Sequence record: PQ799574.1
Strand: one strand, 5' to 3'
DNA length: 64,000 nt
From: Escherichia phage vB_EcoM_Maryam
In this document: in pieces, positions 9,913 through 61,812 of the stretch
Position numbering within the stretch: position 1 is the first letter of the stretch
How the letters are laid out: each line of letters begins with the position of its first letter
The notes under the pieces: model-generated
What the model was told of the DNA's origin: nothing
Database searches by the model: none
What the model saw: the letters and a program-made list of their open reading frames with translations, nothing else
Program-made: the position numbers and the translations under genes

Positions 9913-9929
9913 AGGGCTTCGGCCCTTTA
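9912..9929 (+). terminator. AGGGC-TTCG-GCCCT hairpin
   Basis: Tetraloop hairpin directly after agt stop. Confidence 0.5.
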
Positions 9930-9951
9930 GCTTTATACGGAGTTTGATATA

Positions 9952-11368: not shown

Positions 11369-11555
11369 CATTAATGATGAATTCATAGCAAATATTGATT
11401 ATACCGAAGAAGATTCTAGATATGTTGGAATAATTTATATTACATCAAAAACAGCACAAGGTGTTGTTTGCATGGCTGAATTTGATGAATACTTTTTAGA
11501 TTATGATGATATGATAGAATGGTCTAAAAGATACATTAAAAGGAATCTTTTGTGA
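11340..11555 (+). CDS. hypothetical protein between 47 and 46, start uncertain
   Basis: ORF track 11292..11555 overlaps previous ORF; ATG 11340 is alternative start. Confidence 0.4.
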   Translation: MHIVKFSTFDINDEFIANIDYTEEDSRYVGIIYITSKTAQGVVCMAEFDEYFLDYDDMIEWSKRYIKRNLL

Positions 11556-13234: not shown

Positions 13235-13248
13235 TTTATAAGAGATTA

Positions 13249-13272
13249 TGCTTTAATTTATTAGAGTATAAT
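13249..13272 (+). promoter_or_regulatory. middle-type promoter (MotA box TGCTTTA plus TATAAT)
   Basis: TGCTTTA 13249-13255, TATAAT 13267-13272. Confidence 0.4.
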
Positions 13273-13289
13273 CTCTATGGAGGAAAAAC

Positions 13290-13478
13290 ATGGAATATTC
13301 AACTGGACAGCATCTATTAACTATTCCTGAAATAAAACGATATATTCTGAGAAATAATTTTTCTAATGAAGAGCATATAGTTACTGAATCTATGCTTAGG
13401 AATGCATTTAAAGCAGAATATACAAAAATAATGTCCAATAGAAATGAAGCTTGGACTGTTACTGATTATTATGACTAA
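13290..13478 (+). CDS. hypothetical protein (gene 45.2-like)
   Basis: ORF track 62 aa; position between 46 and rpbA. Confidence 0.5.
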   Translation: MEYSTGQHLLTIPEIKRYILRNNFSNEEHIVTESMLRNAFKAEYTKIMSNRNEAWTVTDYYD

Positions 13479-13487
13479 AGGTGTATT

Positions 13488-13877
13488 ATGACTAAAATTA
13501 CTGTGAATTATACTGTTGATGTAAAAGATATTCAGCCAAAACACGTGCGTTCTGAATCAAATCCACAAAACCAAAATAAAATTCGTCGCGCATGGGTTTT
13601 GTCTCTTTCTGATAACGCAATGGAAGTTATTCAGAATAAAATTAAATCTGCACCTGCTCGTCATGCGTATTATGAAGCTATCGATCGTGAAGTAAGTAAT
13701 AAATGGATTGAACTAATGCGCAAACATACTACAGAATCCCTAAACGCCGGTGCTAAATTTATTATGACTTCATGTGGTGAACGCCTTGAAGATGATTATT
13801 GTGGTAATGCAGATGAACGTCTAATTGTTGCTGCTCAAATTGTTGCGGAAACAATTGCGGCTGATTTTAATCGTTAA
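13488..13877 (+). CDS. rpbA: RNA polymerase-binding protein RpbA
   Basis: 129 aa, position immediately upstream of gene 45 start; recalled T4 size. Confidence 0.6.
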
Positions 13878-13932
13878 TTGCTTTATTAAATTAGTTATAA
13901 AATTAAATCTCATTTGAATTGAAGGAAATTAC

Positions 13933-13992
13933 ATGAAACTGTCTAAAGATACTACTGCTCTGCTTAAAAATTTCGCTACTATTAACTCGTAA
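13933..13992 (+). pseudogene. 45: sliding clamp gene 45, 5' fragment only (19 codons then TAA)
   Basis: MKLSKDTTALLKNFATINS matches recalled gp45 N-terminus; remainder of the ~228-aa gene absent. Confidence 0.8.
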
Positions 13993-22134: not shown

Positions 22135-23954
22135 TACTGGCTCATCCATTCTTTACGAAGGTCAGCATTATCTCCCATGAGCATTTCAAAAAGCTCTTTC
22201 CAGTTCTCAGGAAGTTTAACAACATCATATACTGGGTTTTGAATCATCTCACGATATTCAGATTTTTCCAAAGAGCCAAGTCCCTTAATATAACGGATGC
22301 TATGTTTAGGTAGAGCATCTTTGGCACTCTCATATTCAGCGACTGTATAAAACCATTCTTGTTTTTTACCGACCTGAGCGATGATTACAGGAGTTTTGAC
22401 AAAGCGAATTCGTCCTTGCTCAAACAATTCTGGCCAATTACTAAAAAATCCAAGCAGAGAAGGATAAATGCTTCCTAGACCATCATGGTCAGCATCAGTC
22501 ATAATAGCAATATTATGATAATTCAAGTTTTCAGCTTTTTCACCGAGAACTAATCCAGTGATTGCGCAAATATCAAATAGTTCTTTGTTTTTAAGCATAT
22601 CAGCATATGACATACCCCAACTATTAAGAACTTTACCACGCAATGGATAACCACCATGAAGTTCTTTATCACGAACATCAATAAGATATCCGATAGCCGA
22701 ATCACCCTCAGTCAAGAAAAGAGTCGTGTCAGCATCTTTACCACAAAGATTCGCTTTAATATGTTTATGAACCTTAGCTTTAGAAGCCTTTTTAGCTGCT
22801 TTTGTTTCTGCTGCTTTTTCTGCTGCCAATTTACGAGCCAAAGCAGCTTCAATAATCGGCATTAGAATTGCTTCATTATTTAGAATAGCACGTGAAATCT
22901 TTTTAGCATCAAGCTGAATATGACTACGGATTTCACCAAATGGAGAAGTCAAACGCTCTTTAGTTTGAGAATCAAATCGCATGTTTTTCATATCACGAAC
23001 AAACATAACGATAGTCAAACATTCTTTAACACGTGCTTTAGTTACATCAATTTTGAATTTACGTTTGATTTGTGGAATAAGGTCTTCACAAATATCATCC
23101 ATAACACAGTCAATGTGATGGCCACCATTCTTAGTGTGAATGTTATTCACATAAGTTAATTGACGAAATCCATCCGGTGAACGACCAACCGCAATAGAAC
23201 AATTTTCTTGTTCTTGAACAATAGCATGTTCATCATACTGTCGTGCATATTTCTTAAAATTGCCCTGAACCTTTTTACCATTAAAGGTAAATTGAATATC
23301 AGGATAAACAACAGCAAGTGTCTGGAGACGATCTAGTGTAATATCAAGATAAACTTGGGACAGCTCATTAGTTTCAAATGACATAAAATCAGGAATGAAA
23401 GTAACACGTGTTCCTTTCCATTTTCCAGGAATATCTTCCCATGATTTATTTTCCATGCCATTTGAACAACGAACTACAATATTATTTTGACCATCACCCG
23501 TTTCACCAACAAACATCACAGAAAAAATGTTTGTCAAACTAGAACCAACACCATTCATACCGCCGGTGACACGTTCTTTATCATCACCAAAGTTACCACC
23601 CGCTTTTGGAATAGTCCAAGCAGCAACTGGACCAGGAATTTCTTCACCGGTAGGTGTTTTAACCATCGCTTGTGGAATACCACGACCGTTATCTTCAACT
23701 GTTACTTGATTGTTTTTAATAGTAACATTAATTTTATTTGCGAATTTAAACTTAGTACGAATACCTTCATCGACTGAGTTATCGATAATTTCATCAATAA
23801 GCTTAACAAGACCAGGTACATACTGAACACTTTCCCATTTACCAAACAGAAAGCGCTCATGCATTTCATTAGCAGAAGAGCCAATGTACATGCCACTACG
23901 CTTTTTGATATGTTCAATATCGCTCAGAATTTTAATTTCATTCTTAATCATCAC
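22134..23954 (-). CDS. 39: DNA topoisomerase II large (ATPase) subunit, single fused gp39 (T2-type, no gene 60 split)
   Basis: 606 aa continuous ORF covering both the ATPase domain and the TOPRIM-containing C-terminal part. Confidence 0.9.
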   Translation of the reverse strand: MMIKNEIKILSDIEHIKKRSGMYIGSSANEMHERFLFGKWESVQYVPGLVKLIDEIIDNSVDEGIRTKFKFANKINVTIKNNQVTVEDNGRGIPQAMVKTPTGEEIPGPVAAWTIPKAGGNFGDDKERVTGGMNGVGSSLTNIFSVMFVGETGDGQNNIVVRCSNGMENKSWEDIPGKWKGTRVTFIPDFMSFETNELSQVYLDITLDRLQTLAVVYPDIQFTFNGKKVQGNFKKYARQYDEHAIVQEQENCSIAVGRSPDGFRQLTYVNNIHTKNGGHHIDCVMDDICEDLIPQIKRKFKIDVTKARVKECLTIVMFVRDMKNMRFDSQTKERLTSPFGEIRSHIQLDAKKISRAILNNEAILMPIIEAALARKLAAEKAAETKAAKKASKAKVHKHIKANLCGKDADTTLFLTEGDSAIGYLIDVRDKELHGGYPLRGKVLNSWGMSYADMLKNKELFDICAITGLVLGEKAENLNYHNIAIMTDADHDGLGSIYPSLLGFFSNWPELFEQGRIRFVKTPVIIAQVGKKQEWFYTVAEYESAKDALPKHSIRYIKGLGSLEKSEYREMIQNPVYDVVKLPENWKELFEMLMGDNADLRKEWMSQ

Positions 23955-24004
23955 TTATCCTCGTTTGGTTTCGGGAATATTATACTCCGGTAATCATAAA
24001 GCTA

Positions 24005-24021
24005 AAGGCCCGAAGGCCTTT
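24005..24021. terminator. AGGCC-CGAA-GGCCT hairpin with flanking T-run
   Basis: Inverted repeat 24005-24018 followed by TTTTATTT. Confidence 0.45.
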
Positions 24022-24290
24022 TATTTAAAACGAATAGTTGAATCCTTAAAGAACAGCCCAGAACATACTGTTCCTTCTACTTTCTGCCCGGTAGGTCCAA
24101 TAGCACGAAATCCAGTATGTTGGAAATCATTTTCAGAGCAACCGAACCAGTTATATCCAGTGATTTCAATATTCGTAAAACCACTTGATGATAAAATTTT
24201 AGTTGCATTATCAGCATCAGTACATCCTACTAAAGATACTGCTAATACTAATGCTGCAATAGAACGATTAATATATTTCATAATTTTCAC
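24021..24290 (-). CDS. putative lipoprotein
   Basis: 89 aa; signal peptide with lipobox LVGC. Confidence 0.5.
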   Translation of the reverse strand: MKIMKYINRSIAALVLAVSLVGCTDADNATKILSSSGFTNIEITGYNWFGCSENDFQHTGFRAIGPTGQKVEGTVCSGLFFKDSTIRFK

Positions 24291-24658
24291 TTAAATTTAA
24301 TGGCTTGAAGAAGACTAATAACTCTCAAGCGACTTCTTTCATCTTTAACTGTAAAGGAAAGAGGGTCACCAGATTTCATAGTGATAGTGCATCCAAAATC
24401 AAAATTTTCGGGAACTTCTTTGAAGAAGTCAAATTCTTCATCATAAATTAGAACATTACTCTGACAACTATGAAGAATTTTTCCATCATTTCCAGATGCT
24501 GTACTAATCATTGTAACATTATGACCTTTCATATCTTCAACGATAAATTCACTAGTCAATATTACAGCATTAATAGAACTATTCCTATTACTAGCAGAAA
24601 GTAGAAATTTCTGTTCTTCACCTTCACGAATGCAATATTTCTTACCAATTTTAAACAT
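24287..24658 (-). CDS. hypothetical protein
   Basis: ORF track 123 aa. Confidence 0.5.
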   Translation of the reverse strand: MFKIGKKYCIREGEEQKFLLSASNRNSSINAVILTSEFIVEDMKGHNVTMISTASGNDGKILHSCQSNVLIYDEEFDFFKEVPENFDFGCTITMKSGDPLSFTVKDERSRLRVISLLQAIKFK

Positions 24659-34855: not shown

Positions 34856-35101
34856 TTATTCACCAGTTACTTTCCACAAATCTTCGTTTGCAGTAATCCA
34901 TTCAGTACGTTGATTTTCTTCATATACTGTAGAATATGCTGCTTTTTCTGAAGGGAATATCTGATAATGAGCTCCAGAAATTTTGTGAACGTCAGAATAA
35001 AGAGGGAAAGCTACAGAAATTTCCTTTCCTTCAATTTTCTTATTTCCATCTAATTTCTGCTCAAACGTTTTGATATTAACATAACCGCGAGTACTAGCCA
35101 T
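34856..35101 (-). CDS. soc: small outer capsid protein Soc
   Basis: 81 aa MASTRGYVNIKTFEQKLDGNKKIEGKEISVAFPLYSDVHK... Confidence 0.9.
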   Translation of the reverse strand: MASTRGYVNIKTFEQKLDGNKKIEGKEISVAFPLYSDVHKISGAHYQIFPSEKAAYSTVYEENQRTEWITANEDLWKVTGE

Positions 35102-35323: not shown

Positions 35324-35530
35324 TCATTTTGAATGCTCTATAATTAATTTTAAGGCTTCTTCACGCACCAACTTGCCTAATGGTATATGACCAGTTTTAA
35401 TTGTGTAAGCTTTGTGGAGCTGATTAGATAAGAGCTCGTATGTGAGCTCTTTGTCATAATTTTTAAATAGCTGGTCAATACGTTTCTTGCGGGCTTTCTT
35501 AAGCTGGCGTTTATTTAAACGAGCCATCAA
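35324..35530 (-). CDS. hypothetical basic protein
   Basis: ORF track 68 aa. Confidence 0.45.
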   Translation of the reverse strand: MMARLNKRQLKKARKKRIDQLFKNYDKELTYELLSNQLHKAYTIKTGHIPLGKLVREEALKLIIEHSK

Positions 35531-36045
35531 TAACCTCGGTCTTGACGAGCGAAGTTTTCAGCATTTTTCAGATAATAAAGTTTAAAGATTTCTTCAGCTG
35601 ACATTCCAAGAGCAATGAATTTATTCATGAAAAAGTGAAATTGGTCAATCAGTTCAAATTTAATTTCAAGCTGATCTTCAGGAGATAAGTCTTGAATTTT
35701 CTTGGATTGCATTTCAGAATAACGTTTCTTCCAAGGTTTCCATACGGCAGAAGCTTCTTTTTCACCATTACTCATACCACCAAGAGAAGTATATAGCTCG
35801 CGAGTTTCATCTGCGATATAATCGTCTTGGTTTCGCAGCCAAGTAAGAACTTCTCCTGCAGTTTCAAGTGAATCGGGATGACGATTTGTTTCTGGTTTAT
35901 CATTAGCCAAACGAATCTGTAAATGCCGCTGCATATCAAGCATAACCTGCAGTGGGTCAATATTGTGCATAATATTCTCAGCATATGCACGATTTGCTTT
36001 ATCAACACCTTCGATCAAATGAGCGCATTCATTAAAGTGAGCCAT
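35527..36045 (-). CDS. 56: dCTP pyrophosphatase gp56
   Basis: ORF track 35527..36138; true start MAHFNECAHLIEG... at 36045 preceded by AAGGAAA. Confidence 0.8.
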   Translation of the reverse strand: MAHFNECAHLIEGVDKANRAYAENIMHNIDPLQVMLDMQRHLQIRLANDKPETNRHPDSLETAGEVLTWLRNQDDYIADETRELYTSLGGMSNGEKEASAVWKPWKKRYSEMQSKKIQDLSPEDQLEIKFELIDQFHFFMNKFIALGMSAEEIFKLYYLKNAENFARQDRGY

Positions 36046-36116
36046 TATTTTTCCTTTCAATTCATGAGTTAGTAGATTAATTATACAATAAATATATAAA
36101 GCAATAAGGAGGACAT

Positions 36117-36317
36117 ATGGTACAAAAATTAATGGCACTTGTTAATGCCATCAAAGGTAATAAAAAGCGTATAGCTTTTACTATTTCTGCTATGGTAGGA
36201 ATTTTACTCTGGAACTTTATTCTATCACCTGTTGCAATTGCACATGGTATTAATATTCCAGTAGTTACTCTTGATACATTCGTAGATTTAGCATTTGCTT
36301 TAGTTGGGTTAATTTAA
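36117..36317 (+). CDS. small membrane protein encoded on opposite strand between genes 56 and 61
   Basis: 66 aa; strong SD AAGGAGG 7 nt before ATG; two hydrophobic segments. Confidence 0.4.
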   Translation: MVQKLMALVNAIKGNKKRIAFTISAMVGILLWNFILSPVAIAHGINIPVVTLDTFVDLAFALVGLI

Positions 36318-37342
36318 ATCTTAGCATATTTAGATAACCGCATTTTAGCCATCAACCCCTGGGCAATATTATTTTTCATATATTCCATAATTTGTTCAGG
36401 GGTTGCACCTTCCTTTCTAATCATATCATTAACATCTTTTGATTTCCAGGGAGATTTATCCCAAAACATAACCCTTTCTCCTGCATCAACTAATTTAGTC
36501 ATTCGCTTAATAGTGTCAGGATGACGAGGTTCATTATCTAAAACCCACACTCGTCTATCTTTAAATGGAACAACTTCTAGGTCTAATTGACCACCCGTAA
36601 TAGCTATACCATTTTCAATAAAAAGTGAATCTATAGGTCCTTCTAGAACATATACATCACCATCTTTAACTCGTTCGACTCCATATATTTTTGTTGCCTC
36701 AGGATAAGCTTTAATGGTGATATATTTTTGAGGAGCATCTTTCTTTAATGCACGTCCTTGAAAAGACTCAGCTTTTCCATTAGCATTATAAATTGGAATA
36801 ACAAGACGAGGCTCAGAAATTTCCTTTTTGTATGTTCCCGGTGCTATGCTATTAACTAATTTAGGCCATTCGGTTGTAAACCAAAGATATTTCCATTTAT
36901 CCTTTGGAATACAACGAGCTTTTACATATTTTATAATTGGATGGTCTTCCGCCAGTTTATCTAATCTAACACATGACGGAAGAGATTTAATTATTTTCTT
37001 CTCAGGTTGCTTAGGAAGTTCTTTAGGTTTTTCTACTGGACGACTTTTACCTTTTTCTTTTCTTATTTCAAAGATATACTCACGATATAAATCAGGTTCA
37101 AACTCCTTTAAATATATTCCGATTGGTGCATGATAATTACAGTTATAACAATGAATATTTCCTTCATTATTATCACCATAATACCATCCACGAGCTTTAT
37201 TCTGGTCGGTTTTTGAATCTCCACAAACAGGACATCTAAACCGCAATTTAAAAGTTGAACTATTATTTACTTGTGTGAATTTAGGTAAATGAGCCAATGC
37301 ACGATACGCAAACTCATTATCAATCCAAGGTATTGATGACAT
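36314..37342 (-). CDS. 61: DNA primase gp61
   Basis: 342 aa; zinc ribbon CPVCGDS...CYNCNYH plus TOPRIM. Confidence 0.9.
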   Translation of the reverse strand: MSSIPWIDNEFAYRALAHLPKFTQVNNSSTFKLRFRCPVCGDSKTDQNKARGWYYGDNNEGNIHCYNCNYHAPIGIYLKEFEPDLYREYIFEIRKEKGKSRPVEKPKELPKQPEKKIIKSLPSCVRLDKLAEDHPIIKYVKARCIPKDKWKYLWFTTEWPKLVNSIAPGTYKKEISEPRLVIPIYNANGKAESFQGRALKKDAPQKYITIKAYPEATKIYGVERVKDGDVYVLEGPIDSLFIENGIAITGGQLDLEVVPFKDRRVWVLDNEPRHPDTIKRMTKLVDAGERVMFWDKSPWKSKDVNDMIRKEGATPEQIMEYMKNNIAQGLMAKMRLSKYAKI

Positions 37343-37510
37343 TTTTACTCTTCTTTTTCTTTAGATTCCTCTTTTTTCTTTTTAGGAATCTGTTCAGGAC
37401 CTTTATTTACTACAGCACCTGATGTTGTTCCAGTAGAGATATTTTCAGGATTACCACCTGAATCTCCAGCGACCATATCTTCTTTAATAAATTCTTTATA
37501 TGTTTTCATA

Positions 37511-45192: not shown

Positions 45193-47888
45193 TCAGCCAA
45201 ACAGGAAGTCTAACGAAGCTTTTTCTTCATAGTCCATACCAGCCGATTCACACATGCCTGCAAGCGGTTTAACAAACGATTTTTGGAACAAAGTTGAGTA
45301 GTCAATCCAAGATAGTACATCAGAACGAATTTCTTTTGGAAGTTCTGTACCCGACGGCCAAGCAATGCACTTGTCGCCAAATGGATTTCCTTCACGTAAT
45401 GGAAGAACCATTACCTTATTTCCATCCAAAATTGGAGCTACACCCAGACCACTAACAGCTCGACGATAAGTTAGCACACCACGAATATGGAACGGGCATT
45501 TAAATCCTGGCCAACCTTTATCATCATATTTCGCTATATCGTTCGCAGTTTTTACTTCAGCAATAACTTTATAGTCAAGTTGACGATATTCTTTCTCGAA
45601 GTTCTTGTAATATTCTTGGACAGACTCTTCACCTTCCTGAAGAATACGACGAATACTTTCTTCAAGAGCTTCTTGAACTGCTTTAGGCGTTGAACTTTGC
45701 TGAGTTTCCATACCCATGATTTTTAGATGCGGTTCAGCAAAACGCTTATCTTCCATATCATATACGTTCAGAGCATAACGCTTTTTCGCTTTCCAAAATC
45801 CACCAACGCCCTTTGAACCAAGTGGAGGGCAAGAAATAGCTTCACGGTCCATATGCATCAGATGCTCGCGGTTATTCATATAATCACATAACTCACGATA
45901 TGCAACATCAATCATAGGTTCCATCTTTTTCTTACCGAACTGATTCATGAATTCAACTAAATCGTTCTGCTCTTTGAATCGGTCAAGACCAACTTTTTCA
46001 ATAACTTTATCTACACAAACATATACCGAATCAGTATCACCTGCTGCAATGAAATCTTCGCCATTAGTTCCGCACACTTTATTCAGATACTCATTAATTT
46101 TACGAGCAATCCACTGAATACCAACTTGGCCGAAAATTGTGATAGCAGTAGCATTTCGCAAATCATAGTAACGGAAATGAATATTACCAAGAGCACCGTA
46201 AAGGCTGTTAATAAGAATTTTACGGTTCAGCTGATTTGTATTAGCAAGTGTAGCCGCTTTTTCACATTCTTCAATCAAACTATTGAGAACAGATTCAGTA
46301 TAATTCGATAGTTCATTTAAGAAATCATCACTGAACTTAACATATCGTTCAACTTCAGGTTTAGTTGAACAAGACCCTGCGCCTTTCATAATAATCTTTT
46401 TAATAGCTTCGGCATTCATTTCTTCAGCGAACATTTTCTTTTTCCAATCTTTACGCTGGAAAAATACTTTAGCGATTTCCTTTGGAATGATACCTTCTTG
46501 ATGCTTATCGTACATCCATCCATTCGGAGAACAAGAATATTCATCACTCGGTTTAGGAGCTGTTCCTGCGATATATTCATGAATTGGATGAACTTTAAAC
46601 TGACCACGAATAGTCTCAGGACTAATGTTAACCTGACGAATAATGCTCGGATACAGAGACGTCAAGTCAAAACTCATAATATATCGACGAGCAATTGGTT
46701 TAGGTTCAAATACAAATGCACCCGGAAAACTCTGTTTAACGTGCGAACCTTGTTGAGGAATAACCTTATGTTCACCTTTCAATGAGTTAAAAATAATAGC
46801 ATCCCAGGTTTTAATAGGACTCATTACACCAGAAAAAGGCATTTTAGCGTAATAAGACATACTTAAAACTAGATCGATAAACCCGCGAATTTTATCAATT
46901 GCTTGAACTGATTCTACGTCAATGATGTTATAACTAATGTATCGTTGATGATTAGTCTCACGAAGTTTATTAATAGGACCGTCGTATGGTAATTTACCTT
47001 TTTTGGTTTCATGCTGAGCAACTGATTCCAAAGAGAATGACGGCAAATTAGTAAATGCGAATTTCTTATACAAATCTAAATAATCAAGAATAGATACGCC
47101 ATCAATAGAATAAATTTCTTTGCTACCGTACATATTTTGGATAAGTTTAGATTTTACTCGACCGATTGGAGAGAAGCGTTTCATACTACGTTCACCGAGA
47201 ACCATTTTAACGCGATTCATGATATACGGAACGTCAAATCCCTCAATATTCCAACCAGTAAAAATAGCAGGTCGTTTCTGTTCCCAGAGATTGATATATT
47301 CCATGAGCATATCACGCTCATTATCGAATGGCATATAAATTACTCGGTCAAGAATTTCTTGAGGAACTTCATCACCACCTTCACAGTCAAGCTTAGCAGC
47401 TAACTTTGCATCCCATTTTGATACTGAACCATACATTGAATTCAAAAGGTCGAAAACATAAAAACGATCATCAATTGAATCGTAATGAGTGATAGCATCA
47501 ATTTCATATTCAGCTTTCATTGGGTCAGGAAATTTATCACCAGTAACCTCAATGTCACAGTTAGCTACACGAACAAATTTTCGGTCATAAACAATTTCTG
47601 AACCGTATGTATCACTGATAAAGCGAGTTTAAAATCGTTCATACCGAGAGCTTCGAGACCGATGTCTTCCATTCGTTTCATCCAATCTCGAGCATCTTTC
47701 ATTGATGGAAATTTTTGAGGAGCGCAGTTTTTACCATAGATGTCTTTGTACTTTGACTCTTCCTTACAATGCCTAAACATAGTTGGAAGATATTCTACTT
47801 CACGAGTACGTTCCTTTCCATTTTCATCAATATAACGTTCAACAATATTATTTCCGACTGTTTCAATAGAGATATAAAATTCTTTCAT
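45193..47888 (-). pseudogene. 43: DNA polymerase gp43 interrupted by a 1-nt frameshift near 47619
   Basis: N-terminal 84 codons in ORF 47565..47888, remainder in ORF 45193..47520 in another frame; the second frame is open upstream and reads ISDTYGSEIVYDRKFVRVANCDIEVTGDKFPDPMKAEY. Confidence 0.85.
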
Positions 47889-48585: not shown

Positions 48586-49131
48586 TTACCATTCCAATGC
48601 TAGTTTTTTGAGTTGTTTCTGTTCTTTTACGTTCTTAGTCACTTCTTTCAAAAAATCATCCGTGACTAAACCTTTTAGTTCTTTTAATACTAAAGGAAGT
48701 TTTCCATTTTTAGTAAGAATTGATTTATAGTTAATTGCATCATTTGTATTAACTTGATACCACTTAGCAAGTAACTTAATAATCAATACTTCGGTGGAAT
48801 CTTCAACCAGTTTTGCCCATTTACCGTATCTTTTACCACGAGGAACTGCAGCCATTAGATAATTAAAATGAGCTTCATCACTTAAGCCTGATCCAATTAA
48901 ATTCATAGCATATACAGCTGGCATGCACTCTGGAAATTGTGATAATGCATTTTCAACCATGAATTTTGAATAATCTTTTTGAGCAATAGAGCATTTAGTT
49001 TTATTATTGATAGCTCCAATTATTTCAAAAAATTCATTTTCAGCTTTTTCTTTAAAAGAATCAGCAGCGGATTGGACAGCTGTCCAATCTTTTGAATACC
49101 AAGCAAGTAGGAAAAGATTATGTATGCCCAT
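48586..49131 (-). CDS. 62: clamp loader small subunit gp62, N-terminus atypical
   Basis: 181 aa; from [15 protein letters not shown] onward matches recalled gp62, first ~9 residues MGIHNLFLL do not. Confidence 0.75.
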
Positions 49132-49237
49132 TTAGTTCTCCGGTAAATGGAATGCTAAAACCTGCTTTACGCGATCTTTATATTGCGATGAACGAAGAAA
49201 TGATAAAAGAATTAAAACGTCAACTGAAGGTGATTTA
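49111..49237 (+). pseudogene. 3' fragment of an unidentified ORF ending at breakpoint 2
   Basis: Frame open only from the stop at 49108; encodes ...MLKPALRDLYIAMNEEMIKELKRQLKVI then stop. Confidence 0.3.
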
Positions 49238-49239
49238 AT

Positions 49240-49458
49240 TTGGCCAGGGAAATTAATTCAAAATCCGATTATTTTAATTCTCTCAATGATAAAGATAAAA
49301 ATCTAATACGGCATTTTATTGTTGAGATGGGATATACCGATACACGCGATTTAAGAGAACATATATTTGAATGTGGTGTAGCTAAAAAGTTTTCATTCAC
49401 ATGCAAATGTTTGAGAGAGGTAATTCAGCACTATGAACAATTTAGTCGCAAAACATAA
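49240..49458 (+). CDS. hypothetical protein
   Basis: ORF track 72 aa. Confidence 0.5.
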   Translation: MAREINSKSDYFNSLNDKDKNLIRHFIVEMGYTDTRDLREHIFECGVAKKFSFTCKCLREVIQHYEQFSRKT

Positions 49459-49541
49459 TTTTAATAAAGCTTCTGTTCATAAGGATAAGAAGAAAGCGTT
49501 TAAAGAATCTAATCGCAAGCAGAAACATAAGGGGAAGGTCT

Positions 49542-49820
49542 ATGATTATTGATTCTCAGTCTGTGGTTCAATACACAATCAAAATTGATATTCTAGAAAA
49601 GCTATATAAGTTTCTACCAAATTTATACCACTCAATTGTTAATGAATTAGTTGAAGAACTACATCTCGAGAATAATGATTTCTTGATTGGAACTTATAAA
49701 GACCTCTCAAAAGCAGGATATTTCTACGTAATTCCAGCACCAGGAAAAAGTATTGATGATGTATTAAAAACTATAATGATTTATGTCCATGATTATGAAA
49801 TTGAAGATTATTTCGAATGA
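49542..49820 (+). CDS. arn: Arn (anti-restriction nuclease) -like protein
   Basis: 92 aa; position upstream of asiA. Confidence 0.6.
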   Translation: MIIDSQSVVQYTIKIDILEKLYKFLPNLYHSIVNELVEELHLENNDFLIGTYKDLSKAGYFYVIPAPGKSIDDVLKTIMIYVHDYEIEDYFE

Positions 49821-49981
49821 GTCATAATCTTGAAAAAGTAATCGAGCATAATGTAGCTCAGGAACGTAAGTCGTTCAAGGAATTCGTAGAAAAAATTTTT
49901 GAAGAAAATAGCACAGACCAGTTTACAAATCAAACGTCTGATGATATTATAACAAAGTCAACTAATTGAGTGGTATAGTTA

Positions 49982-50254
49982 ATGAATAAAAATATTGATA
50001 CAGTTCGTGAAATTATTACTGTTGCGTCTATTTTGATTAAATTTTCCAGAGAAGATATTGTTGAAAATCGTGCTAATTTTATTGCATTTCTGAATGAGAT
50101 TGGAGTAACGCATGAAGGTAGAAAGTTAAATCAGAATTCATTCCGTAAAACTGTTTCTGAATTAACTCAAGAAGATAAGAAAACCCTCATCGACGAATTC
50201 AACGAGGGTTTTGAGGGTGTATATCGATATCTAGAGATGTATACGAACAAATAA
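49982..50254 (+). CDS. asiA: anti-sigma-70 factor AsiA
   Basis: 90 aa MNKNIDTVREIITVASILIKFSREDIVENRANFIAFLNEIG... Confidence 0.9.
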   Translation: MNKNIDTVREIITVASILIKFSREDIVENRANFIAFLNEIGVTHEGRKLNQNSFRKTVSELTQEDKKTLIDEFNEGFEGVYRYLEMYTNK

Positions 50255-50911
50255 TTATTTAGCCCTTCCTAATATTCTGGCCGCCTGAGCACATATTGAT
50301 TCAAGGCGGTCATTACTTATATGATCATTTCTATACCAGTACATGGTTATCGTTCCAGCATAGATATTATCCAAATTAAAATATGGACAACTGTACATGT
50401 AGTTTATTTCAGGAGTAGGCTTTTTAGTTGGTAAAAAAGCAAATTTTGAGTTGGAATAATAATGACGTCCATTTAAATGAACTGCATATTCATCCATAGT
50501 TTTATCAACAGGATATCCTCCAAGTGATTTTTCACTTATTGTTGAAGGTAATTTTCCTTCATATGCTATAATATCAACAAAATAGTTTAAGTTTTTAGGG
50601 CGGAAAGAATACACCGCACTAAAGTCTGCCTCAGATGATATATGAACTATCTGGAGTTGTTCCAGGGCGACAGATTCAAAGCGTGCATTTCTTTCCTTTT
50701 CAATAATTTCACTGTATGTTTCATACTTTGATTGCTTATAGTACTCAAAGAAACTATCTCCCCTATACCAAACAATCGCCATCATAAATAAAAGAATTAC
50801 GACAGCTACACGGGAAGCAAGAACTTTCCCGGTAGCGTTATCTTTGAACAAGCGATCTAGAACACCAAATAGAATATCAGAGGGCGAAAATGATATTCTA
50901 GGTGCTGCCAT
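50255..50911 (-). CDS. t: holin T
   Basis: 218 aa with single N-terminal TM and large periplasmic domain; convergent with asiA. Confidence 0.9.
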   Translation of the reverse strand: MAAPRISFSPSDILFGVLDRLFKDNATGKVLASRVAVVILLFMMAIVWYRGDSFFEYYKQSKYETYSEIIEKERNARFESVALEQLQIVHISSEADFSAVYSFRPKNLNYFVDIIAYEGKLPSTISEKSLGGYPVDKTMDEYAVHLNGRHYYSNSKFAFLPTKKPTPEINYMYSCPYFNLDNIYAGTITMYWYRNDHISNDRLESICAQAARILGRAK

Positions 50912-50941
50912 AGACCCTCCTTTTAAGGATATTTATTCAAA

Positions 50942-51718
50942 TTATACTCTTGGACCATATATTGCTCCAACATTTTGCCACGTTGGAGAAGACCCTATAA
51001 CAGCATATCCAGAATCGCCGCCATTGTATTCAGATCCTTGACCACGAATATTACATCTACCTCCTGCGGCGCCTACCTCACCACCGCTTCCGCCATTATA
51101 GATACCGTTCACGGACCCCGATCCAGGCGCATAAAGAGTACCAGCAGTTGCGCCTGATTGCATATCAATAGATCCGCCAGGTGCACCAAACGGACGCCCA
51201 CCACCACCACCAAAGGTTAATCTCATTTGTGAAAAAGGAGAATAATACCCACCGCCACCACCGCCACCACCGGCAGCAATAGCTCCGCCATTATTAATTC
51301 TTAGTCTCCCACCAATATCGTTTTGAATACAATGACCTCCAGCTGAGCCAGGACTATTGCTACCGCCATTACCTCCACGACCATACATCGTTACGCCGTG
51401 TATATTTAACTGAACATATTCATTTGGTGTATCTCCGTACATAAAGAATAAAGGAACATCTTTAGAATATGATACTAAATCACCTGTAATATTAAACACT
51501 ATAGGTGCACTACCTGCCTCAAAACATCTATCTCGGAACCATTGACCATTGAAGTTATGGTCTGCTCCAAGCGTGTGAATTATTTCAACAGATCGACCTA
51601 TCATATTACTCATCCAAAACGGAACGCCCATTCTTAATCTTGCGGCTGCTCCTGCCATCCAATGGTCTCCAGTCTGTGCCAATGCAGAAGTTCCTATCCA
51701 CGGTCCTGCTACTGCCAT
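50942..51718 (-). CDS. 38: long tail fibre adhesin gp38, T2/T6-type with glycine-rich repeats
   Basis: 258 aa from ATG 51718 ([15 protein letters not shown]...), GGAGG SD; poly-Gly runs; ORF track starts at upstream TTG. Confidence 0.8.
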
Positions 51719-51728
51719 ATAAACCTCC

Positions 51729-51744
51729 AAGGGGCCGAAGCCCC
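51729..51744 (-). terminator. GGGGC-UUCG-GCCCC hairpin between genes 37 and 38
   Basis: Identical core to hairpin at 47947-47962. Confidence 0.45.
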
Positions 51745-51749
51745 TCTTA

Positions 51750-54700
51750 TTATTTTAACAATGATTTAACTAATGCTTTAAGTTCTTCGATTTCTGATTT
51801 AAGTTCTGCAATTTCTGCAGTATGCTCATTGATTGCAGCTGTATTTAAACCAATTACACCGTTATAGTTCAAACGAAGTAAAGCTTCGCCATCAGGGTCA
51901 CCTTCAACTAATTCTGGTAAAATAGCTTGAACTTCTTGAGCAATTAAACCGGCGTTAGGTTCCCATTTCTGATTGCCTTCTTCATCTAGGCCTCGCTTCT
52001 GCATATAAGTGTAACCGTTAATTTTGGAAAGCTTCTCAGAAGCATTTTCAAATTTAACAAGGTCTTTTTTAACACGAATATCAGAACGGACATAAACATC
52101 TCGAACAAATGTGGAATAGGCATCGCTCTGTTGGACTAAATGACCAAAAGAAATAATAGCTCTTCCTTGTTCAGTCCACAAAGCACCAGTGGTATCCCAA
52201 AGACCTTCATGGAGATGGTAAGCGGACGACCATGAAGCAATATGCATTCCATTTGCAACCATATTAATTCGCCCATCACCGCCATGAACTAATCCAGTAT
52301 CATTATCACCAATAACAAGACATGGTCCAGTCCACACCGGGTCACCACCGCCAGCTGATAATCTTGCTCCGGTTTGAACCATGTTAGGAACATACAGAAC
52401 TCCAGTGTGGTGGAATTCATAGATAGCTTGTGGGTCAGAACCGTTTTCCTGGTTACCTACACGAATAATACCTTGTGCCCAGTTATTAGTAATGCGACGC
52501 ATACCAAAATCAACGCTAGATATGTATCCTTCATTCGTAATAGCAGATTTTCCTTTAATAATAGGATAATAACTATCATTACCAACATTACCAAAATCTA
52601 CAAATATCGGAGCTTCTTGTCGCCATTGGTTTCCCCAATCGCCAGCCTGGTGCGCAGTCCATTGTGTACCGTTTATATGAAGGCGGTCTCTATTAAAATT
52701 AAATGTTCCTTGACCTTGAGGAGAAAGCGATATTTCGCCGTTATTTGTTATGTATACACCACCCTGTGTAATGTAACTGTAAAAACCTAGACCGTTGTCG
52801 CCGCCACCTTTGCCTATATACCAGTTATTTGTACCACCTACATCACTACGGATATGTGATGAAGCACCTCCGCCAGCAGTTAAAACGAGAGCATCATTGC
52901 CTGCTGATAAAGTCAATTTACCAGTCATCGTGTCGCCTTCTTTAGAAACACGAGTAGCTATTGCATCGCGAATATTTGTGGTTTCTCCCGCAGAAGTAAA
53001 CGATTTCCAAATATCTGAGAAAATATTACCATTACGAGCAATAGTAGCTTCACCGCCGCCGACTTGAACGTTATCGGGGAAATTAACTGTACCGTCTTGA
53101 TTAAAACGAGACGTATGGCCTTGTGAACCATCTTCTTTTAAATGATGTAAAACAAATGTACCCGAATTAATTTCAGTACCTAAAGACCAAACAGCTTTAC
53201 TGTTTAAAAACTTCTGTTTAACAATAGGATAATATTTACTTACTGCGTCATCATCGATTTCCTGGAAAATAGGAGCTGCTTGAACATATTGAATATCATA
53301 ACCACCAGCGCCAGCGCCGTGACCAGTAAATTTAATATATCCGTTTGCTGCGAACGTATTGTAACTTGATTGTAAATCTGGAATAGTAACTTTACCAGTA
53401 TCTAAAGCCATACTAAACGGGCGAAGTGGACCGATATCACCATGTTTACCTTCACCATAAGCAGTTGGAATAATATGAAGACTGCCTTCTGAACGTCTAA
53501 AAATAGCTCCATAATCTGCGTTCCAAATGCGAAGAGCATTCACTGCTCCAGATGAAATTTCGCCTGTTGTGTGAACTCCTCTATTTCCAGCAGTAACACC
53601 AGATGATTCAAATGAACCGTTAACGTTCATTTCTACTTCACCTGTTGTAAGTCTTTGAATATAGCTCATCCAGCTAGTTGCATCGGAAATTTCCATGACA
53701 TTTTTGCGATTACCTTCACTAGGAATAGTAAATGTATTACCCCACACGGAAATTGTCATATTATCAACTGAACTACTACCAGTTGTGTTACCTCTAAACA
53801 TCAGTGTAGAAGCATTATTTCTACCATCGATATTAACAGAACCACCAATAACGTCAATATTACCAGGAGTAACTAACAAACCGCCATGAGTATTAATGTT
53901 TGTGGTACCCTTGCCGCGGAAATAATGATGATAGTTACCGCCTTGATAATATCCTAAAAGAGTCTGACCATCTCCAAACGCGTTATTATCGTGATATGTC
54001 ACGACAGTAGCAAGAGCATAATTTTCAGTTGGAGGAGTAGTTAAATCGGTTCCGTTAGTAGAATATCCAGCTACAAATTTTCTTAGGCTAGTTGTTTCGC
54101 TAGGACTAAATAAAAACGTTTTTGTTCCATTATTAACGCTAAAATAATATCCATCTTGATGCCATTTAAATCCAGTATCATTATCTCCTAAAGCAATACT
54201 AGATTGTCCTAATATTGAATAATCTTTATTACCAGGTGTTAAACCAATAGAAATTGAGTGACTTGATTTAATTCCGCCGCTCCAAGTAAATGACCAAAGA
54301 TAGGTGTCAAGTCCATCACCTGCATACCAAGTTATTCCATCATTATCTTTAACTTCATGGAAAATACCAGAACCAACGGCATTACGCATGACACGAAGAT
54401 GATTAATAGCAGTAGTGCTTTCAGACAATGGAACATTGTCTGCCATCGAATAGATGTCATAATCACCCGTAGATTTATTATTAGTAATGACTTTGTTGGT
54501 CAGAATTTGTGGAGACGAAATAGATTTCCATGCTGATACTTCAGGTGAAGTAAATAGTCCACTGCCTGAAAATGCATAAGTGCTTTCGCTACCAGCGGCG
54601 TAGTCTTGAACCCTGATATTAAGTACTTGTGTAGTTAAACCATCATTAGCCGGGGCATAAATGATTCCGCGTTCGCGACTATTGTTATCGAAAAAACGAA

Positions 54701-55061
54701 CATGCGCTGTACCTGAACTTTTTGTAATAAGTTCTCCGCCTTCAGTCATAATCTGCCCAGCGGAAATAATATCGCGAGTTACTCGAGCAATACCAATTAA
54801 ATTAAAATTACCAGTCTGAGTGAAGACGCCATTTAAAGTATAATCGCCAGTTTGGTTATAATTGCCTGTATGAATAACATTCCCGTCAATACTACCGCCT
54901 TTAGCAAAACCCAGATCAATAATATTTCCTTGGTCATCTTTAGTAAAAAGTACACGGTCTTTTAAGTTTATAGCCAATTCACCTTCGGCTAATACTGAAG
55001 CGGCAGGACGTGCTCCTGCAGTTTTGCTTCTTTTAAATTGTATTTGTTTTAAAGTAGCCAT
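51750..55061 (-). CDS. 37: long tail fibre distal subunit gp37 with C-terminal intramolecular-chaperone-like domain
   Basis: 1103 aa; glycine-rich fibrous repeats; C-terminus SDIRVKKDL...[15 protein letters not shown]...[14 protein letters not shown]. Confidence 0.85.
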
Positions 55062-55069
55062 AAGTCCTC

Positions 55070-55726
55070 TTAATAATAGCCGAAATCTTGAACAGAATCC
55101 TTAATAACAATTTGGTCAAATCGTGGAACATGCGAGGGTTGAGATGCAGGATTCTGTGAAAAAAGGTTTGGCGCAGTTAAATTTCCTGTCATAGTGTCTC
55201 CAGAGCGTAATACCCTAGAGTTTGCGTTTGCTGTAACAATATTTATTGCTCCATCAACATAATCTTTCCGCGTAAGGTCATAATTATTTACTGGTGATAA
55301 CGAAGTTACACGGATTTGTGATGCTTCAATTACGCCCTTTGAGCTAATATCTCCATTTCGTGTGTTAATTACTACAGTTCTACCTGCTGTTCCTTGTGAT
55401 GATTTAAAACCAATACCATACCACGAAACAATATCCATATTTGTAGTATCATACGTGGCACTATCACCAGGACCAGCAAAAATACCATTATCGCCTGACC
55501 CTGCGCCAGGAACAGTCATTCCTTTATTAAAAATTACTTTATTTAAATAAGTACCACCATTAGCTTTAGAAACGAAATCGTTATCTGCAGCTTGTGGTTT
55601 ATTATATTCTGAATATATTTTAAATGATTTATAGAGTACATCGTCACCGGCTGGATTCAATGGAAAATTTCCTTGATGCCAAATGACAGAGCCTCCGGTT
55701 GTTGAACCTACTTTTAAATCAGCCAT
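55070..55726 (-). CDS. 36: long tail fibre hinge protein gp36
   Basis: 218 aa; position between 35 and 37. Confidence 0.85.
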   Translation of the reverse strand: MADLKVGSTTGGSVIWHQGNFPLNPAGDDVLYKSFKIYSEYNKPQAADNDFVSKANGGTYLNKVIFNKGMTVPGAGSGDNGIFAGPGDSATYDTTNMDIVSWYGIGFKSSQGTAGRTVVINTRNGDISSKGVIEASQIRVTSLSPVNNYDLTRKDYVDGAINIVTANANSRVLRSGDTMTGNLTAPNLFSQNPASQPSHVPRFDQIVIKDSVQDFGYY

Positions 55727-55749
55727 TGTATGCCCCTTTATTTTAATAG

Positions 55750-55757
55750 TATTTATA
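55750..55757 (-). promoter_or_regulatory. late promoter TATAAATA upstream of gene 36
   Basis: Reverse complement of TATTTATA at 55750-55757, ~24 nt upstream of gene 36 ATG. Confidence 0.6.
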
Positions 55758-55766
55758 AAGAAAAAG

Positions 55767-55786
55767 GGAACCCGAAGGCTCCCTCA
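55767..55786 (-). terminator. GGGAGCC-UUCG-GGUUCCC hairpin with U-run between genes 35 and 36
   Basis: Imperfect inverted repeat with one G-U pair, UUCG loop in minus-strand RNA. Confidence 0.5.
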
Positions 55787-55788
55787 AT

Positions 55789-56904
55789 TTAAACTTCTCT
55801 AAATTCCTGTCCAAACACTTTACCAGTTTTAGACGATGCTTGCGTAGGAAGTACCATTATATCCGGAGGTGAAGCAGATTCACAGATATAATTAACTCGA
55901 ATACCATTGACGCCAAACTCAGCAGGTTTTGAAATGCCACCATTTCTTGACACTTCAGAAAAGCTTAAATTTCTCATACCGCCTTGACCCGCTTGTGCAG
56001 TTCTCTGTGCGTATATCGTAAATCCAACTGCATTTTCTGGAACAACTACATAATCTTCTTTTAATTCCCAAGACCCAGCTTGTCCGGTAAACTCAGCATG
56101 TGTTGAAGAAATATATCCATCCGATTCATTATAAAATCTAATGGATATATTCGTAGTTCCAAGAGCAAGTAAATCGGCATCAGCATATAGTTGTGCTTTA
56201 AGATAAAGAACATCGCCAGGAATTAAATTGTAGTCAGAAAGTTTACTTATCGCGGATGAAGTTGGTAGACGTGCAATTTCGTTATTAGTTCCACCAACCG
56301 CTGACATAAACTGCTCAACGCTTTCATATGTTCTTCTTGGAAACCCGGTAGCTCCAACGTCTTCTAAACTGTCAAATACAACATCTAAAATAGTTTGATA
56401 ATCATCAGTGCTTTTTCTGTTGCTCAGTTTAACATGCTCTAATGCGATAGCTCTTTTAGAAGAAGTGTAAAAAGAAGCATATGATACATCAAATCTTGAC
56501 AATACAGAGTCAGATGGAAAAGCAGACGTTCCTGCTGTTCTTAGCCAAGATACTACTTCAGGAGGAAAATTAACCTTTCCGCTAGTTAATATAGCAACAA
56601 TTCTATTATTCGTCAAAGAATTCATGAAACTAACAAAAGCAGCTGATGTAGTATCATTTGAAGTAGAAAAAGCATATGACTTACTATCAACTAATGCTCC
56701 TGTAGAAGGGTCAAAAACTCTTAAATGAAGACCTGCGCTAAATGTTTGACTTCCTACAGGATTATCCTGAAATTTAACATATGGTCCTGCTGTAGAAAGC
56801 GGGCAAGAACCCGCTATACTTATTTTGTATCTTACTGAATTACTTTCCGATAAAAATGGCGTTTGGACGTATCCTTGTCCAAACTCTGCCATAAATTTTT
56901 CCAT
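55789..56904 (-). CDS. 35: long tail fibre hinge connector gp35
   Basis: 371 aa; follows gene 34. Confidence 0.85.
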   Translation of the reverse strand: MEKFMAEFGQGYVQTPFLSESNSVRYKISIAGSCPLSTAGPYVKFQDNPVGSQTFSAGLHLRVFDPSTGALVDSKSYAFSTSNDTTSAAFVSFMNSLTNNRIVAILTSGKVNFPPEVVSWLRTAGTSAFPSDSVLSRFDVSYASFYTSSKRAIALEHVKLSNRKSTDDYQTILDVVFDSLEDVGATGFPRRTYESVEQFMSAVGGTNNEIARLPTSSAISKLSDYNLIPGDVLYLKAQLYADADLLALGTTNISIRFYNESDGYISSTHAEFTGQAGSWELKEDYVVVPENAVGFTIYAQRTAQAGQGGMRNLSFSEVSRNGGISKPAEFGVNGIRVNYICESASPPDIMVLPTQASSKTGKVFGQEFREV

Positions 56905-56912
56905 AATACCTC

Positions 56913-59900
56913 TTATTCAACCCATTCAAATTTAACAGTTTTATTCACTGGGTCAGGAATAATACGAACATTACCAATTCGCAAGAAATCACGAATAGTA
57001 AGATTACCCATTATAGCATTATCAGATGGTAAAGCACCGATATCAGATGGCTGAGGAGGGTTACCTCCGTCAAATACCTGAACAAAACTTGACCAAGAGT
57101 TTTTGGTTTTCTGCCATGTGCGTGTCCAACGAGTGGTACGCGCTTCTGGTGTTGTTGGATAAGTAATCCAATCTTGGTAAAGCGAATCAAGTGTGTTACC
57201 AAACTGAGTCAATGTACCAGGAGATTTAACTTCTTCGCCACGTTCTAAGTATGGAAGTCCAGTCACTTCATTAGTTTTTTCAACCATTTTAAAATAACCA
57301 GGGAATTGATTATAAGTGGCTGAATCGTTAATATCAATTGACCAGAATCCTACTGTATCAGTTGTTGGTGCGCGGGTATATAAATCAGATGTTTTAGTGC
57401 CCTGAGAACGAATTCTCGAGTTAACAGTCAAACCGCCTGAATTTATAGTAGCACCTTTGGCAATAATTAAGCTTTCGCCAATCGTTACTTGGCCAGATGC
57501 ATTATTAATAGCTAAAGGACGTAATCCATTAAATCCACCAGTCTGATCACCCGATGCAGTAAGCATAAAATTCGTTACTGATCCATCATTGCGAACAATG
57601 AAACCATAATTTCCGTTAATAGCACGGAAAGCATTTGCGCTTCGAGAAATAATTTCACCAGTTGCAGTGACTGAATTACCAAATGTTGCTACACCATTTG
57701 CATTCAATGTTCCTGAAGCATTAACATTTATAGGTGTTACTGTACCGTTGATATTAAATGTTATATTTCCGGCTTTATTGCGCTGAGAATAAAAATGACT
57801 AGATGTTTCATCACTAACTTCAAATACGGTAGAACGTGTTGTATCTAATTCCCCACTAAATTGATTTCCCCACACTCTAACAGTCATCGTTTGGGCTGGG
57901 TTTGTTCCAGTTTGAGGTCCTTTCTCAAAAATCAATCGAGTTGCTGTTCCAGTATTAGAAATAGTTAATGTACTATTTGCTGAAACTGATCCACCGAACG
58001 TAGCAGTACTAGATGATACAAGAGGGGCACTCAGATTCGTTTGTTGGGTTAAGGTTAGTGAACCATTAACTGTCTGCGCAATGTCCCTACGAATGAACTG
58101 AGATGAATCTAGACCATCCAATAAATTACTATCTACAGCTTTTGCTTTTAATGGCAAATAATTTGCTAATACACGGTTTAATTCATATGGTGATACTGCA
58201 TAACCATTTTTCTCATATGATTCTAATGGCTGTGTTGAACCTACCGTATCATTACCAACAAACGTTAATGAACCAGAAGAAGTTTTAACAAAGCCCCTTA
58301 TCGCAGTAGTTGCTGCCCAAGTAGATTCGCTCTGCACAATCCATTTTAAATTTTTTGGAGATACAGCAGTATTTGCTGACGTTCCAGTCACAGTTTCAGA
58401 CTGAGTTGCAACTTTAATAACACCTTCTTGTGCTTCAGTAGATTTAGTACCTAAAAGCTTTTTAGGAGTTATTAAAACATTATCTAATGTTCCTGCAGCA
58501 GCTTCGACCTGTGTAGCTACACGAAGTGTACCACGCTGTGTCTCATTTGCTTCAAGAATATCAAGGGTATAATGGTCCCAGAGAGTTCCTGATTCAACTA
58601 ATCCAGATAGAGCAACAACAGAAGTACGATCAGTACTATTAAATCTGGTTTTAATTTTTAATGGTGTAGAGATACGAGTATCGTCGACGCCTGCGTCGAA
58701 TTCAACCTGTGTAGCAATTTCAGCTATACCACTTAAACTTTCAGTTGCTCTACGGTCATTTAAAGTTTTAGGAGTGACTGCACGAGTATAGTCAGTTCCT
58801 GTGTTAACTTCACTTTGCGTAGCAATTTCAATTAAACCAATTCTTGCATCAGTTGATGTCTTTTTATGTAACGTTTCTGGCGTTACAACCGCATTTGCCC
58901 ATCCTTCTTGGCTTTGTCCAGCAATTACTTCACTTTCAACTGCTAAAATTACTGCGCCTTGTTGCGTTGGAGTAGCTTTATACTGATCCAAAGCTTTAGG
59001 TGAAACAACTAAATTATTAGTGTTTTTATTATAAACATTCGTACCATTTAATTCACGACTAGAAGCTGGAGTAGCACCTGCAGTAGATACAAAGGTTACA
59101 ATACCAGATAATGATTCAGAACCTTGACGAGCTTGAAGCTTTTTAGGAGTGATGATTGTAGTATCATCGGTTCCTGCATTAGTTTCTTGCTGCGTAGCAA
59201 TTTCTGCGACACCTCTACGAGTTTCTGTAGCAGTTCTTTCATTCAGCTTTTTAGGAGTAATGATAAGGTCATCTGCAAAAGAGAATGTGGTGTTCTGATT
59301 CACTTGAGCAGTAGTTGCTATTCTTGCAATACCTCTACGAGTTTCTGTAGCAGTACGATTAGCTAACGTTTCTGGAGTAATTGCCAATTCTTTTTGTGGA
59401 GAATTTTCTAAATCAGCATTAGCTTGAGCTTGTGTAGCTAAAGCAATTACACCTAATCTTGCTCTAGTAGAATCATTTAAAGAATCTACTCTTTCTACGG
59501 TTGGAACATTTTGCTGTACAACCCAATATTTTCCGTCAGAATCTTCTATATAAGCAAGCTCTAAAACTGGAACATAATTAGTTTCACCGTTAAAAACTAA
59601 TTCTTGAACTGTAACCCACTCAGCTTCAGGTGGATATTCTGAGCGTTTTGGGAATTGCAGCAATTGAACTGAAGAAGCAATTTTATCTTCACCTGCAGCT
59701 TTGATTTTAACCGTTTGTCCTTTTCTCATGTAATTCATAGAAATTTTGACAGTATCACCAACAGAAATATCAGTCGGAAGCTGAAGTTCAATTGTTTGGG
59801 TTGTTCCATTATTCGCGCCAAATACCATGACTTCTTCGTTTGGACGAATATTAGAATTAGTTGTTATAATGCGTAAACGTGCTTTACTATCCCCGTCAAA

Positions 59901-60782: not shown

Positions 60783-60816
60783 TCTCCCGGGCTCCTATTG
60801 TGTTTTCAATAATAAG

Positions 60817-60824
60817 TATTTATA
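60817..60824 (-). promoter_or_regulatory. late promoter TATAAATA upstream of gene 34
   Basis: Reverse complement of TATTTATA at 60817-60824, ~35 nt upstream of gene 34 ATG. Confidence 0.6.
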
Positions 60825-60886
60825 CTTGTTTACTTTAAGATTTGGATGGTATATAATAGAAATCTCACTAATTGAACGAGGTTCAT

Positions 60887-61804: not shown

Positions 61805-61812
61805 GGTGAATA

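Follow-up and report, generated by a model that had tools for sequence, protein, structure and literature searches.

Short, hydrophobic inner-membrane proteins are familiar from phage T4, where Imm, Ac and RI are generally regarded as non-essential and act at the envelope; Imm and Ac are early genes. The product of the 66-aa ORF described here is likewise short and hydrophobic, but it is apparently made late, and we detected no sequence or profile similarity between it and Imm, Ac or RI. Its closest described relatives are the proteins of the RB32ORF030w / RB69ORF029w family (phrog_2024). The member from phage RB14 (ACP30675.1, labelled 'RB32ORF030w, similar to RB69ORF029w') is identical to our protein and shares its size, its strand and its position between genes 56 and 61; there is thus no difference between this family and our ORF, which is a member of it.

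A gene at the same position has been covered by a transposon study of Bas37, which that study describes as a close relative of T4. In Bas37, bas37_0144 is a plus-strand gene of 201 nt that overlaps the primase gene by 4 nt (10.1101/2025.11.20.689424), and because of this overlap we take it to be the positional counterpart of the 66-aa ORF. Insertions disrupted 20 of its 24 TA sites and the gene was classed 'Non-essential'; its insertion counts showed no significant shift in three of the six host comparisons (log2FC 0.33, 0.20 and -0.28, all with q = 1), and the text of the paper flags it in none of the six (10.1101/2025.11.20.689424).

The 66-aa ORF is already known to databases as a hypothetical protein, yet it is absent from the T4 reference annotation. 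The exact protein is present on 259 contigs, and hundreds of relatives carry an annotated copy. In T4 the ORF is intact (NC_000866, 17738..17938) and its product differs from ours at two amino acids; however, the T4 records NC_000866.4, AF158101.6 and KJ477684.1 carry no annotation of it, it is missing from the T4D table of the 2025 transposon study, and the exact T4 protein has no NCBI accession, raw assembly collections being its sole source. Between dam and gene 61 the T4 reference records leave 309 bp 'empty', and it is here that the ORF lies. Our literature search, made on the ORF names, on unannotated T4 ORFs and on small membrane proteins by the primase gene, returned no paper on it. 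The T4 genome is among the most closely studied of all, yet its gene list omits a conserved gene with a putative late promoter. Listing the ORF in T4 would make it visible to annotation-based CRISPRi, to proteomics and to per-gene transposon statistics. Apart from this correction of the annotation, it would be one more non-essential small membrane protein, of modest consequence unless it proves to have a conditional phenotype.

Our main reading, to which we give a probability of about 0.72, is that T4-type phages possess in this ORF a genuine accessory gene, encoding a small, dispensable, envelope-linked inner-membrane protein whose expression would be late and driven by gp55.

The ORF and its neighbours

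The window, that is, the whole stretch of 64,000 nt analysed (Escherichia phage vB_EcoM_Maryam, PQ799574.1), is a T4-type (Tequatrovirus) segment. The 421 bases around the ORF are 100% identical to Escherichia phage vB_Eco_CP and show 98-99% identity to many other relatives. The elements of the locus are as follows.

35527..36042, minus strand: gene 56, dCTPase, the left neighbour
36080..36103, minus strand: predicted MotA-box middle promoter of gene 56, with TGCTTTA (36103-36097), an 11-nt spacer and TATAAT (36085-36080)
36087..36094, plus strand: putative late-promoter element AATAAATA, positions -13 to -6, with a predicted start near 36100 and a 17-nt leader
36106..36112, plus strand: Shine-Dalgarno (SD) sequence AAGGAGG, with a 4-nt spacer to the ATG; GGAG(G) is kept before the start codon in all lineages
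36117..36317, plus strand: coding sequence of the predicted small membrane protein, 66 aa, 7.1 kDa, pI 10 (phrog_2024 / RB32ORF030w)
36119..36154, minus strand: terminator-like hairpin (36154..36129) with a T-run, downstream of gene 61 and inside codons 1-13 of the ORF
36314..36317, both strands: TTAA palindrome formed by the overlapping stops of the ORF (plus) and gene 61 (minus)
36314..37342, minus strand: gene 61, DNA primase, the right neighbour, convergent with the ORF

A previous sequence-only reading of this DNA had proposed a plus-strand 66-aa ORF in a gap of 270 bp between genes 61 and 56, within a run of minus-strand genes longer than 30 kb. The ORF is found there with its ATG start (MVQKLMALVNAIKGNKKRIAFTISAMVGILLWNFILSPVAIAHGINIPVVTLDTFVDLAFALVGLI), the gap measures 271 bp (36043..36313), and the run covers ~35 kb, from about 14.6 to 49.1 kb, and beyond. 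The same reading placed AAGGAGG 7 nt before the ATG. The motif is indeed present, but the spacing has to be corrected to 4 nt (ACAT) from its last G, and a distance of 7 nt holds only when counted from the centre of GGAGG.

An ATG-initiated ORF of at least 66 aa arose in only 27 of 5000 dinucleotide shuffles of the gap. The AAGGAGG motif has three copies in the window, one of the other two being the SD sequence of the holin gene t. As long ORFs are rare in the shuffles and both AAGGAGG and the late-promoter heptamer (see below) are rare in the window, it is unlikely that the ORF occurs by chance.

Two further ORFs were noted in the surroundings. A 68-aa ORF on the minus strand (35324-35530) lies between soc and gene 56 and matches phrog_5782 ("virion structural protein"); its site is taken in T4 by the homing endonuclease gene segF. 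The only other long plus-strand ORF in the minus-strand run, of 136 aa (23884-24294), overlaps a 605-aa minus-strand ORF at its end; it may be spurious.

The source record itself has some oddities. No canonical Tequatrovirus is colinear with the window, which falls into three blocks (1-13988, 13989-49106 and 49107-64000); the first (nrdD, 46/47, a-gt, 55, 49) and the third (t, 38, 37-34, rnh) have the opposite orientation to the central block of early genes. The first block is 100% identical to the 46.9-kb record PV290051.1 (vB_EcoT_BCU-2), and the arrangement has the look of concatenated contigs or an assembly error, not of a biological feature. In addition, the DNA polymerase gene 43 is broken at about 47520-47640 (minus strand), where ~95 N-terminal codons (MKEFYISIETV...DFKLA) run out of frame and the remainder of the protein resumes in a 775-aa ORF (45193..47520). 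Because this gene is essential, its frameshift points to a sequencing error in the source record.

Coding constraint and spread of the family

A tblastn search found the protein in 692 phage records, and in 686 of these the match covers 80% or more of it; identity exceeds 90% in Tequatrovirus, is about 55% in Mosigvirus and falls to 45-50% in Gaprivervirus. Profile searches added remoter members in Moonvirus, Jiaodavirus and Kanagawavirus, and the frame is kept in at least seven genera of the Tevenvirinae. Conservation of the reading frame in related phages had been suggested as a check on the ORF, and it was borne out: the ORF is intact in T4, Mosigvirus, Gaprivervirus, Moonvirus, Jiaodavirus, Kanagawavirus and a lineage represented by the genomes L015-L018. 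Pairwise dN/dS values of the ORF range from 0.1 to 0.5, and changes are fewest at second codon positions (28/12/41 by codon position for the window against Mosigvirus). Between genera the synonymous sites are saturated, yet the frame, the start codon and the length (57-70 aa) persist, and the length variants of 62-63 aa are in-frame deletions. The dN/dS values, the codon-position pattern and the in-frame variants rule out that the conservation comes from minus-strand signals alone, and on this comparative evidence the ORF is a genuine protein-coding gene of T4-family phages. The earlier description of its product as a small membrane protein is backed by the purifying selection, by the frame, start and SD sequence kept across genera, and by the hydrophobicity pattern presented below.

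The family comprises two subtypes. Profile searches revealed the second, type B (MGT.FYQIWKL...LWNLLVVP.AA.QG..LP.VT.EH), which occurs alone in Klebsiella phages and in the L015-L018 lineage and, in Gaprivervirus, in tandem behind type A. All subtypes match one PHROG, phrog_2024 (function unknown), whose profile aligns with the 66-aa ORF at E 1.4e-31 (residues 2-66 on positions 1-65 of 65). In the family alignments P38 is invariant, W32, N33, G44 and P48 are present in at least 90% of the members and the length is about 57-70 aa; the 66-aa ORF has all of these features. The type B copy of Gaprivervirus (L006, 2201-2401; L012 and L013, 2701-2901) shows about 20% identity to the first copy, begins 8 nt after it and has its own SD sequence, without a promoter element. 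TH40 (L005) and DK-13 (L004) are without an intact second copy: the counterpart ORF of TH40 looks degenerate, and in DK-13 a homing-endonuclease gene follows the first copy.

In every genome inspected, the gene is opposite in strand to its early neighbours and convergent with the primase gene, and this synteny is fixed in Tequatrovirus, Mosigvirus, Gaprivervirus, Moonvirus, Jiaodavirus, Kanagawavirus and the L015-L018 lineage. The convergent 4-nt TTAA overlap, which recurs in Mosigvirus, L018, Moon, KLB31 and Bas37, is usual, not universal; a GC-rich hairpin in JD18 and a homing-endonuclease gene in DK-13 lie between the small ORF and the primase gene. On the upstream side there is nothing extra in the window and in RB14, dam in T4 and a homing endonuclease in fPS-90. 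The gap between genes 56 and 61 thus appears as a cargo hotspot, with dam found in Bas37 as well, and the small ORF with its putative promoter survives each arrangement.

Putative late-promoter element and opposing signals

The heptamer ATAAATA, core of the T4 late promoter TATAAATA, is located at 36088-36094, 22 nt before the ATG. The complete element, AATAAATA, matches TATAAATA at 7 of 8 positions, having A instead of T at -13 as do those of t and gene 49; this first T is poorly conserved, A or T, in T4-like phages (PMC1524935). Both strands of the window together contain 9 copies of ATAAATA against 39 +/- 6 expected, a four-fold depletion consistent with selection against stray late promoters. 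Six of the nine have an SD-led ORF 18-34 nt downstream of them on their own strand, namely the late genes 49, 34, 36, t and soc, plus the 66-aa ORF.

We compared the heptamer among Tequatrovirus with and without dam, Mosigvirus, Gaprivervirus, the type-B-only lineage, Jiaodavirus, Kanagawavirus and Moonvirus. It is kept 15-22 nt before the ATG in all of them but Moonvirus (TTAAATA), and the DNA that flanks it differs between lineages. The tandem genes of Gaprivervirus have the late element before the first gene only, as expected of a two-gene late operon. In T4, a dam segment of ~900 bp separates the SD sequence of the small ORF from the -10 box that belongs to the gene 56 promoter, yet a late element, GATAAATA, with G at -13, still precedes the ORF; the start predicted for T4 is at about 17722 in NC_000866. 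A plus-strand sigma-70-like promoter was not found upstream of the 66-aa ORF. From these motifs and their conservation it appears that the ORF is very probably expressed late, in a gp55-dependent manner, from a start near 36100; the A at -13 (G in T4) and the TTAAATA of Moonvirus count against such a promoter. The opposite orientation of the gene would be that of a late transcription unit embedded in an early-gene region.

Two known late genes offer a comparison. T4 soc (34856..35101), a short gene nearby, has its own TATAAATA promoter with ATAAATA about 30 nt before the ATG and, like the 66-aa ORF, is an island of late expression among early genes; however, soc points the same way as the early genes around it and its product is a soluble protein that decorates the capsid, whereas the 66-aa ORF is on the opposite strand and would encode a membrane protein. 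The holin gene t has the same AATAAATA variant and the same AAGGAGG, with 18-22 nt from the promoter end to the ATG in the two genes, and both products are membrane proteins, but holin T has 218 aa and a large periplasmic domain and shows no sequence similarity to the product of the ORF.

The sequence-only reading also held that the ORF is antisense to a transcript reading through from gene 61 to gene 56. This stands insofar as the ORF falls within the 3' UTR of gene 61 and opposes the RNA that reads through from it; the second half of the claim is weakened, since gene 56 has a predicted MotA-box promoter of its own inside the gap and need not rely on read-through. Equivalents of the box and of the -10 sequence are present in T4, Mosigvirus, Gaprivervirus and the L015-L018 lineage, and the fPS-90 record carries an annotated predicted middle promoter at this site. 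The oriA origin has been linked to a nearby MotA-dependent promoter (PMC3016281). In this oriA-linked region, the predicted middle (minus) and late (plus) promoters diverge, overlap in such a way that the late element is contained in the MotA spacer, and differ in temporal class. The two divergent promoters would yield non-overlapping transcripts, and the transcript of the 66-aa ORF is probably separated in time from the mRNAs of genes 61 and 56. At its other end the late transcript would enter gene 61 in antisense, because there is no room for a terminator before that gene; no plus-strand terminator was found in 35400-37500. Such antisense read-through is not a conserved feature, given the hairpin of JD18 and the endonuclease gene of DK-13 that intervene.

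A gap so packed with minus-strand signals (the hairpin at 36154..36129 and the MotA-box promoter), crossed by a late transcript that would run into gene 61, could be taken to mean that the ORF is untranslated, and that the DNA is conserved for the 3' UTR or terminator of gene 61, for the gene 56 promoter or origin, or for an antisense RNA that lowers primase mRNA. We regard this as very improbable. A non-coding cis-antisense RNA would be free of coding constraint, while the ORF shows the codon-position pattern described above and dN/dS below 1 across genera saturated at synonymous sites, its start codon and SD sequence are kept everywhere, and its indels are in frame. The hairpin, which is an annotated terminator in Yersinia phage fPS-90, is conserved only within Tequatrovirus; we rejected it as the cause of the conservation because the protein is conserved where the hairpin is absent. 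The insertions in JD18 and DK-13 speak likewise against a conserved role of antisense read-through.

The predicted protein and its possible role

The two hydrophobic segments reported in the sequence-only reading were recovered at residues 19-42 (mean Eisenberg H 0.75) and 49-66 (0.67, with D53 and D57) of a protein of 7.1 kDa, pI 10 and GRAVY +1.25. All five K/R residues are within residues 1-18, an amphipathic helix, and the only later charges are H43, D53 and D57. Among its tryptic peptides only LMALVNAIK is convenient; a hydrophobic fragment of 48 residues makes up the rest, which may hinder detection by shotgun proteomics. Residues 19-42 form a strongly hydrophobic helix, the one clear transmembrane helix, followed by a loop (H43-P48) and a short helix at about 52-63, one face of which carries D53 and D57 and whose end is hydrophobic. 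An AlphaFold model built with the family alignment (mean pLDDT 81) places helices at 2-12, 16-42 and 52-63. By the positive-inside rule the N-terminus should be cytoplasmic. The topology may be N-in/C-out or a two-helix hairpin, with the C-terminal helix of the model either lying at the periplasmic face or returning through the membrane. No Pfam or NCBIfam match to the product was found up to E 10, the PDB sequence profile search and Foldseek against BFVD and PDB gave no match beyond family members or noise, and a profile search of 1.84 billion representatives returned only family members or noise.

Two other readings of the protein deserve attention. One is that residues 1-42 are a long Sec signal peptide, cut after A-I-A, which releases the 24-residue hydrophobic HGINIPVVTLDTFVDLAFALVGLI to the periplasm. 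The basic n-region, the hydrophobic core, P38 and the small residues at -3 and -1 (A40 and A42) agree with such a precursor, and P-x-A-x-[A/S/T] before x-G recurs across the family alignment. However, the core of 19-24 residues is typical of an uncleaved anchor, the h-region of a signal peptide having about 7-15; the best-conserved residues, W32, N33 and P38, would be inside a signal peptide, where drift is normal; and Mosigvirus has L or V at -3. Cleavage at P38-V-A-I-A42, before H43, is possible but disfavoured by these features, and we hold the precursor to be quite improbable. The other reading is that of a holin or holin-like lysis protein that would build up late in the inner membrane and form or regulate lesions there. 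The protein is small, with two hydrophobic stretches and at least one transmembrane domain (19-42); the late-promoter 8-mer and the AAGGAGG SD sequence are those of holin t in the window; one UniProt orthologue is named 'Holin' and one GenBank record 'holin family protein', and one remote member weakly matches a holin PHROG (E 5e-4). Against this, the protein ends in ...DLAFALVGLI, without a charged C-terminal tail, and the curated Pfam and NCBIfam holin families gave no match up to E 10. No endolysin gene adjoins it, the neighbours being the dCTPase and primase genes, and lysis in T4 is explained by t, e, the spanins, rI and rIII. The Bas37 counterpart tolerates transposon insertions well, so that lysis and plaque formation do not appear to require it. 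The 'holin' names in the databases appear to be automatic labels. For the lack of a charged tail, of a curated family match and of endolysin linkage, and for the non-essential counterpart, we rejected membership among the holins and consider the lysis-protein reading unlikely.

We return to a late, dispensable inner-membrane protein, for which the following course of events can be proposed. Late in infection, RNA polymerase with gp55, together with gp33 and the gp45 clamp, would start at AATAAATA (36087-36094) and produce a rightward mRNA with a short leader, from which AAGGAGG would drive translation of the 66-residue, 7.1-kDa protein. Its basic amphipathic N-terminus (1-18) would stay in the cytoplasm, residues 19-42, which carry the W32-N33...P38 motif, would span the inner membrane, and the loop G44...P48 with the acidic-hydrophobic C-terminal helix would face or dip into the periplasmic leaflet. 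The gene would be dispensable for plaque growth on laboratory E. coli, and its product might modulate a late, envelope-linked step, for example the timing or inhibition of lysis or the protection of infected cells; this is a guess. That expression is late, where the transcript starts, how the protein sits in the membrane and that its role concerns the envelope are what we infer from the motifs and models above; the Pfam, NCBIfam, PDB and fold searches gave no link of the protein to a particular envelope process.

A bolder proposal, which we offer tentatively and consider rather doubtful, is that the protein is an unrecognised player in a T-even envelope phenotype, be it lysis timing or inhibition, late superinfection exclusion, or the countering of a membrane-acting host defence. 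If this were true, subtypes A and B, which Gaprivervirus carries side by side, would represent diverging specificities. The small protein is present in all the enterobacterial T-even-like genera sampled.
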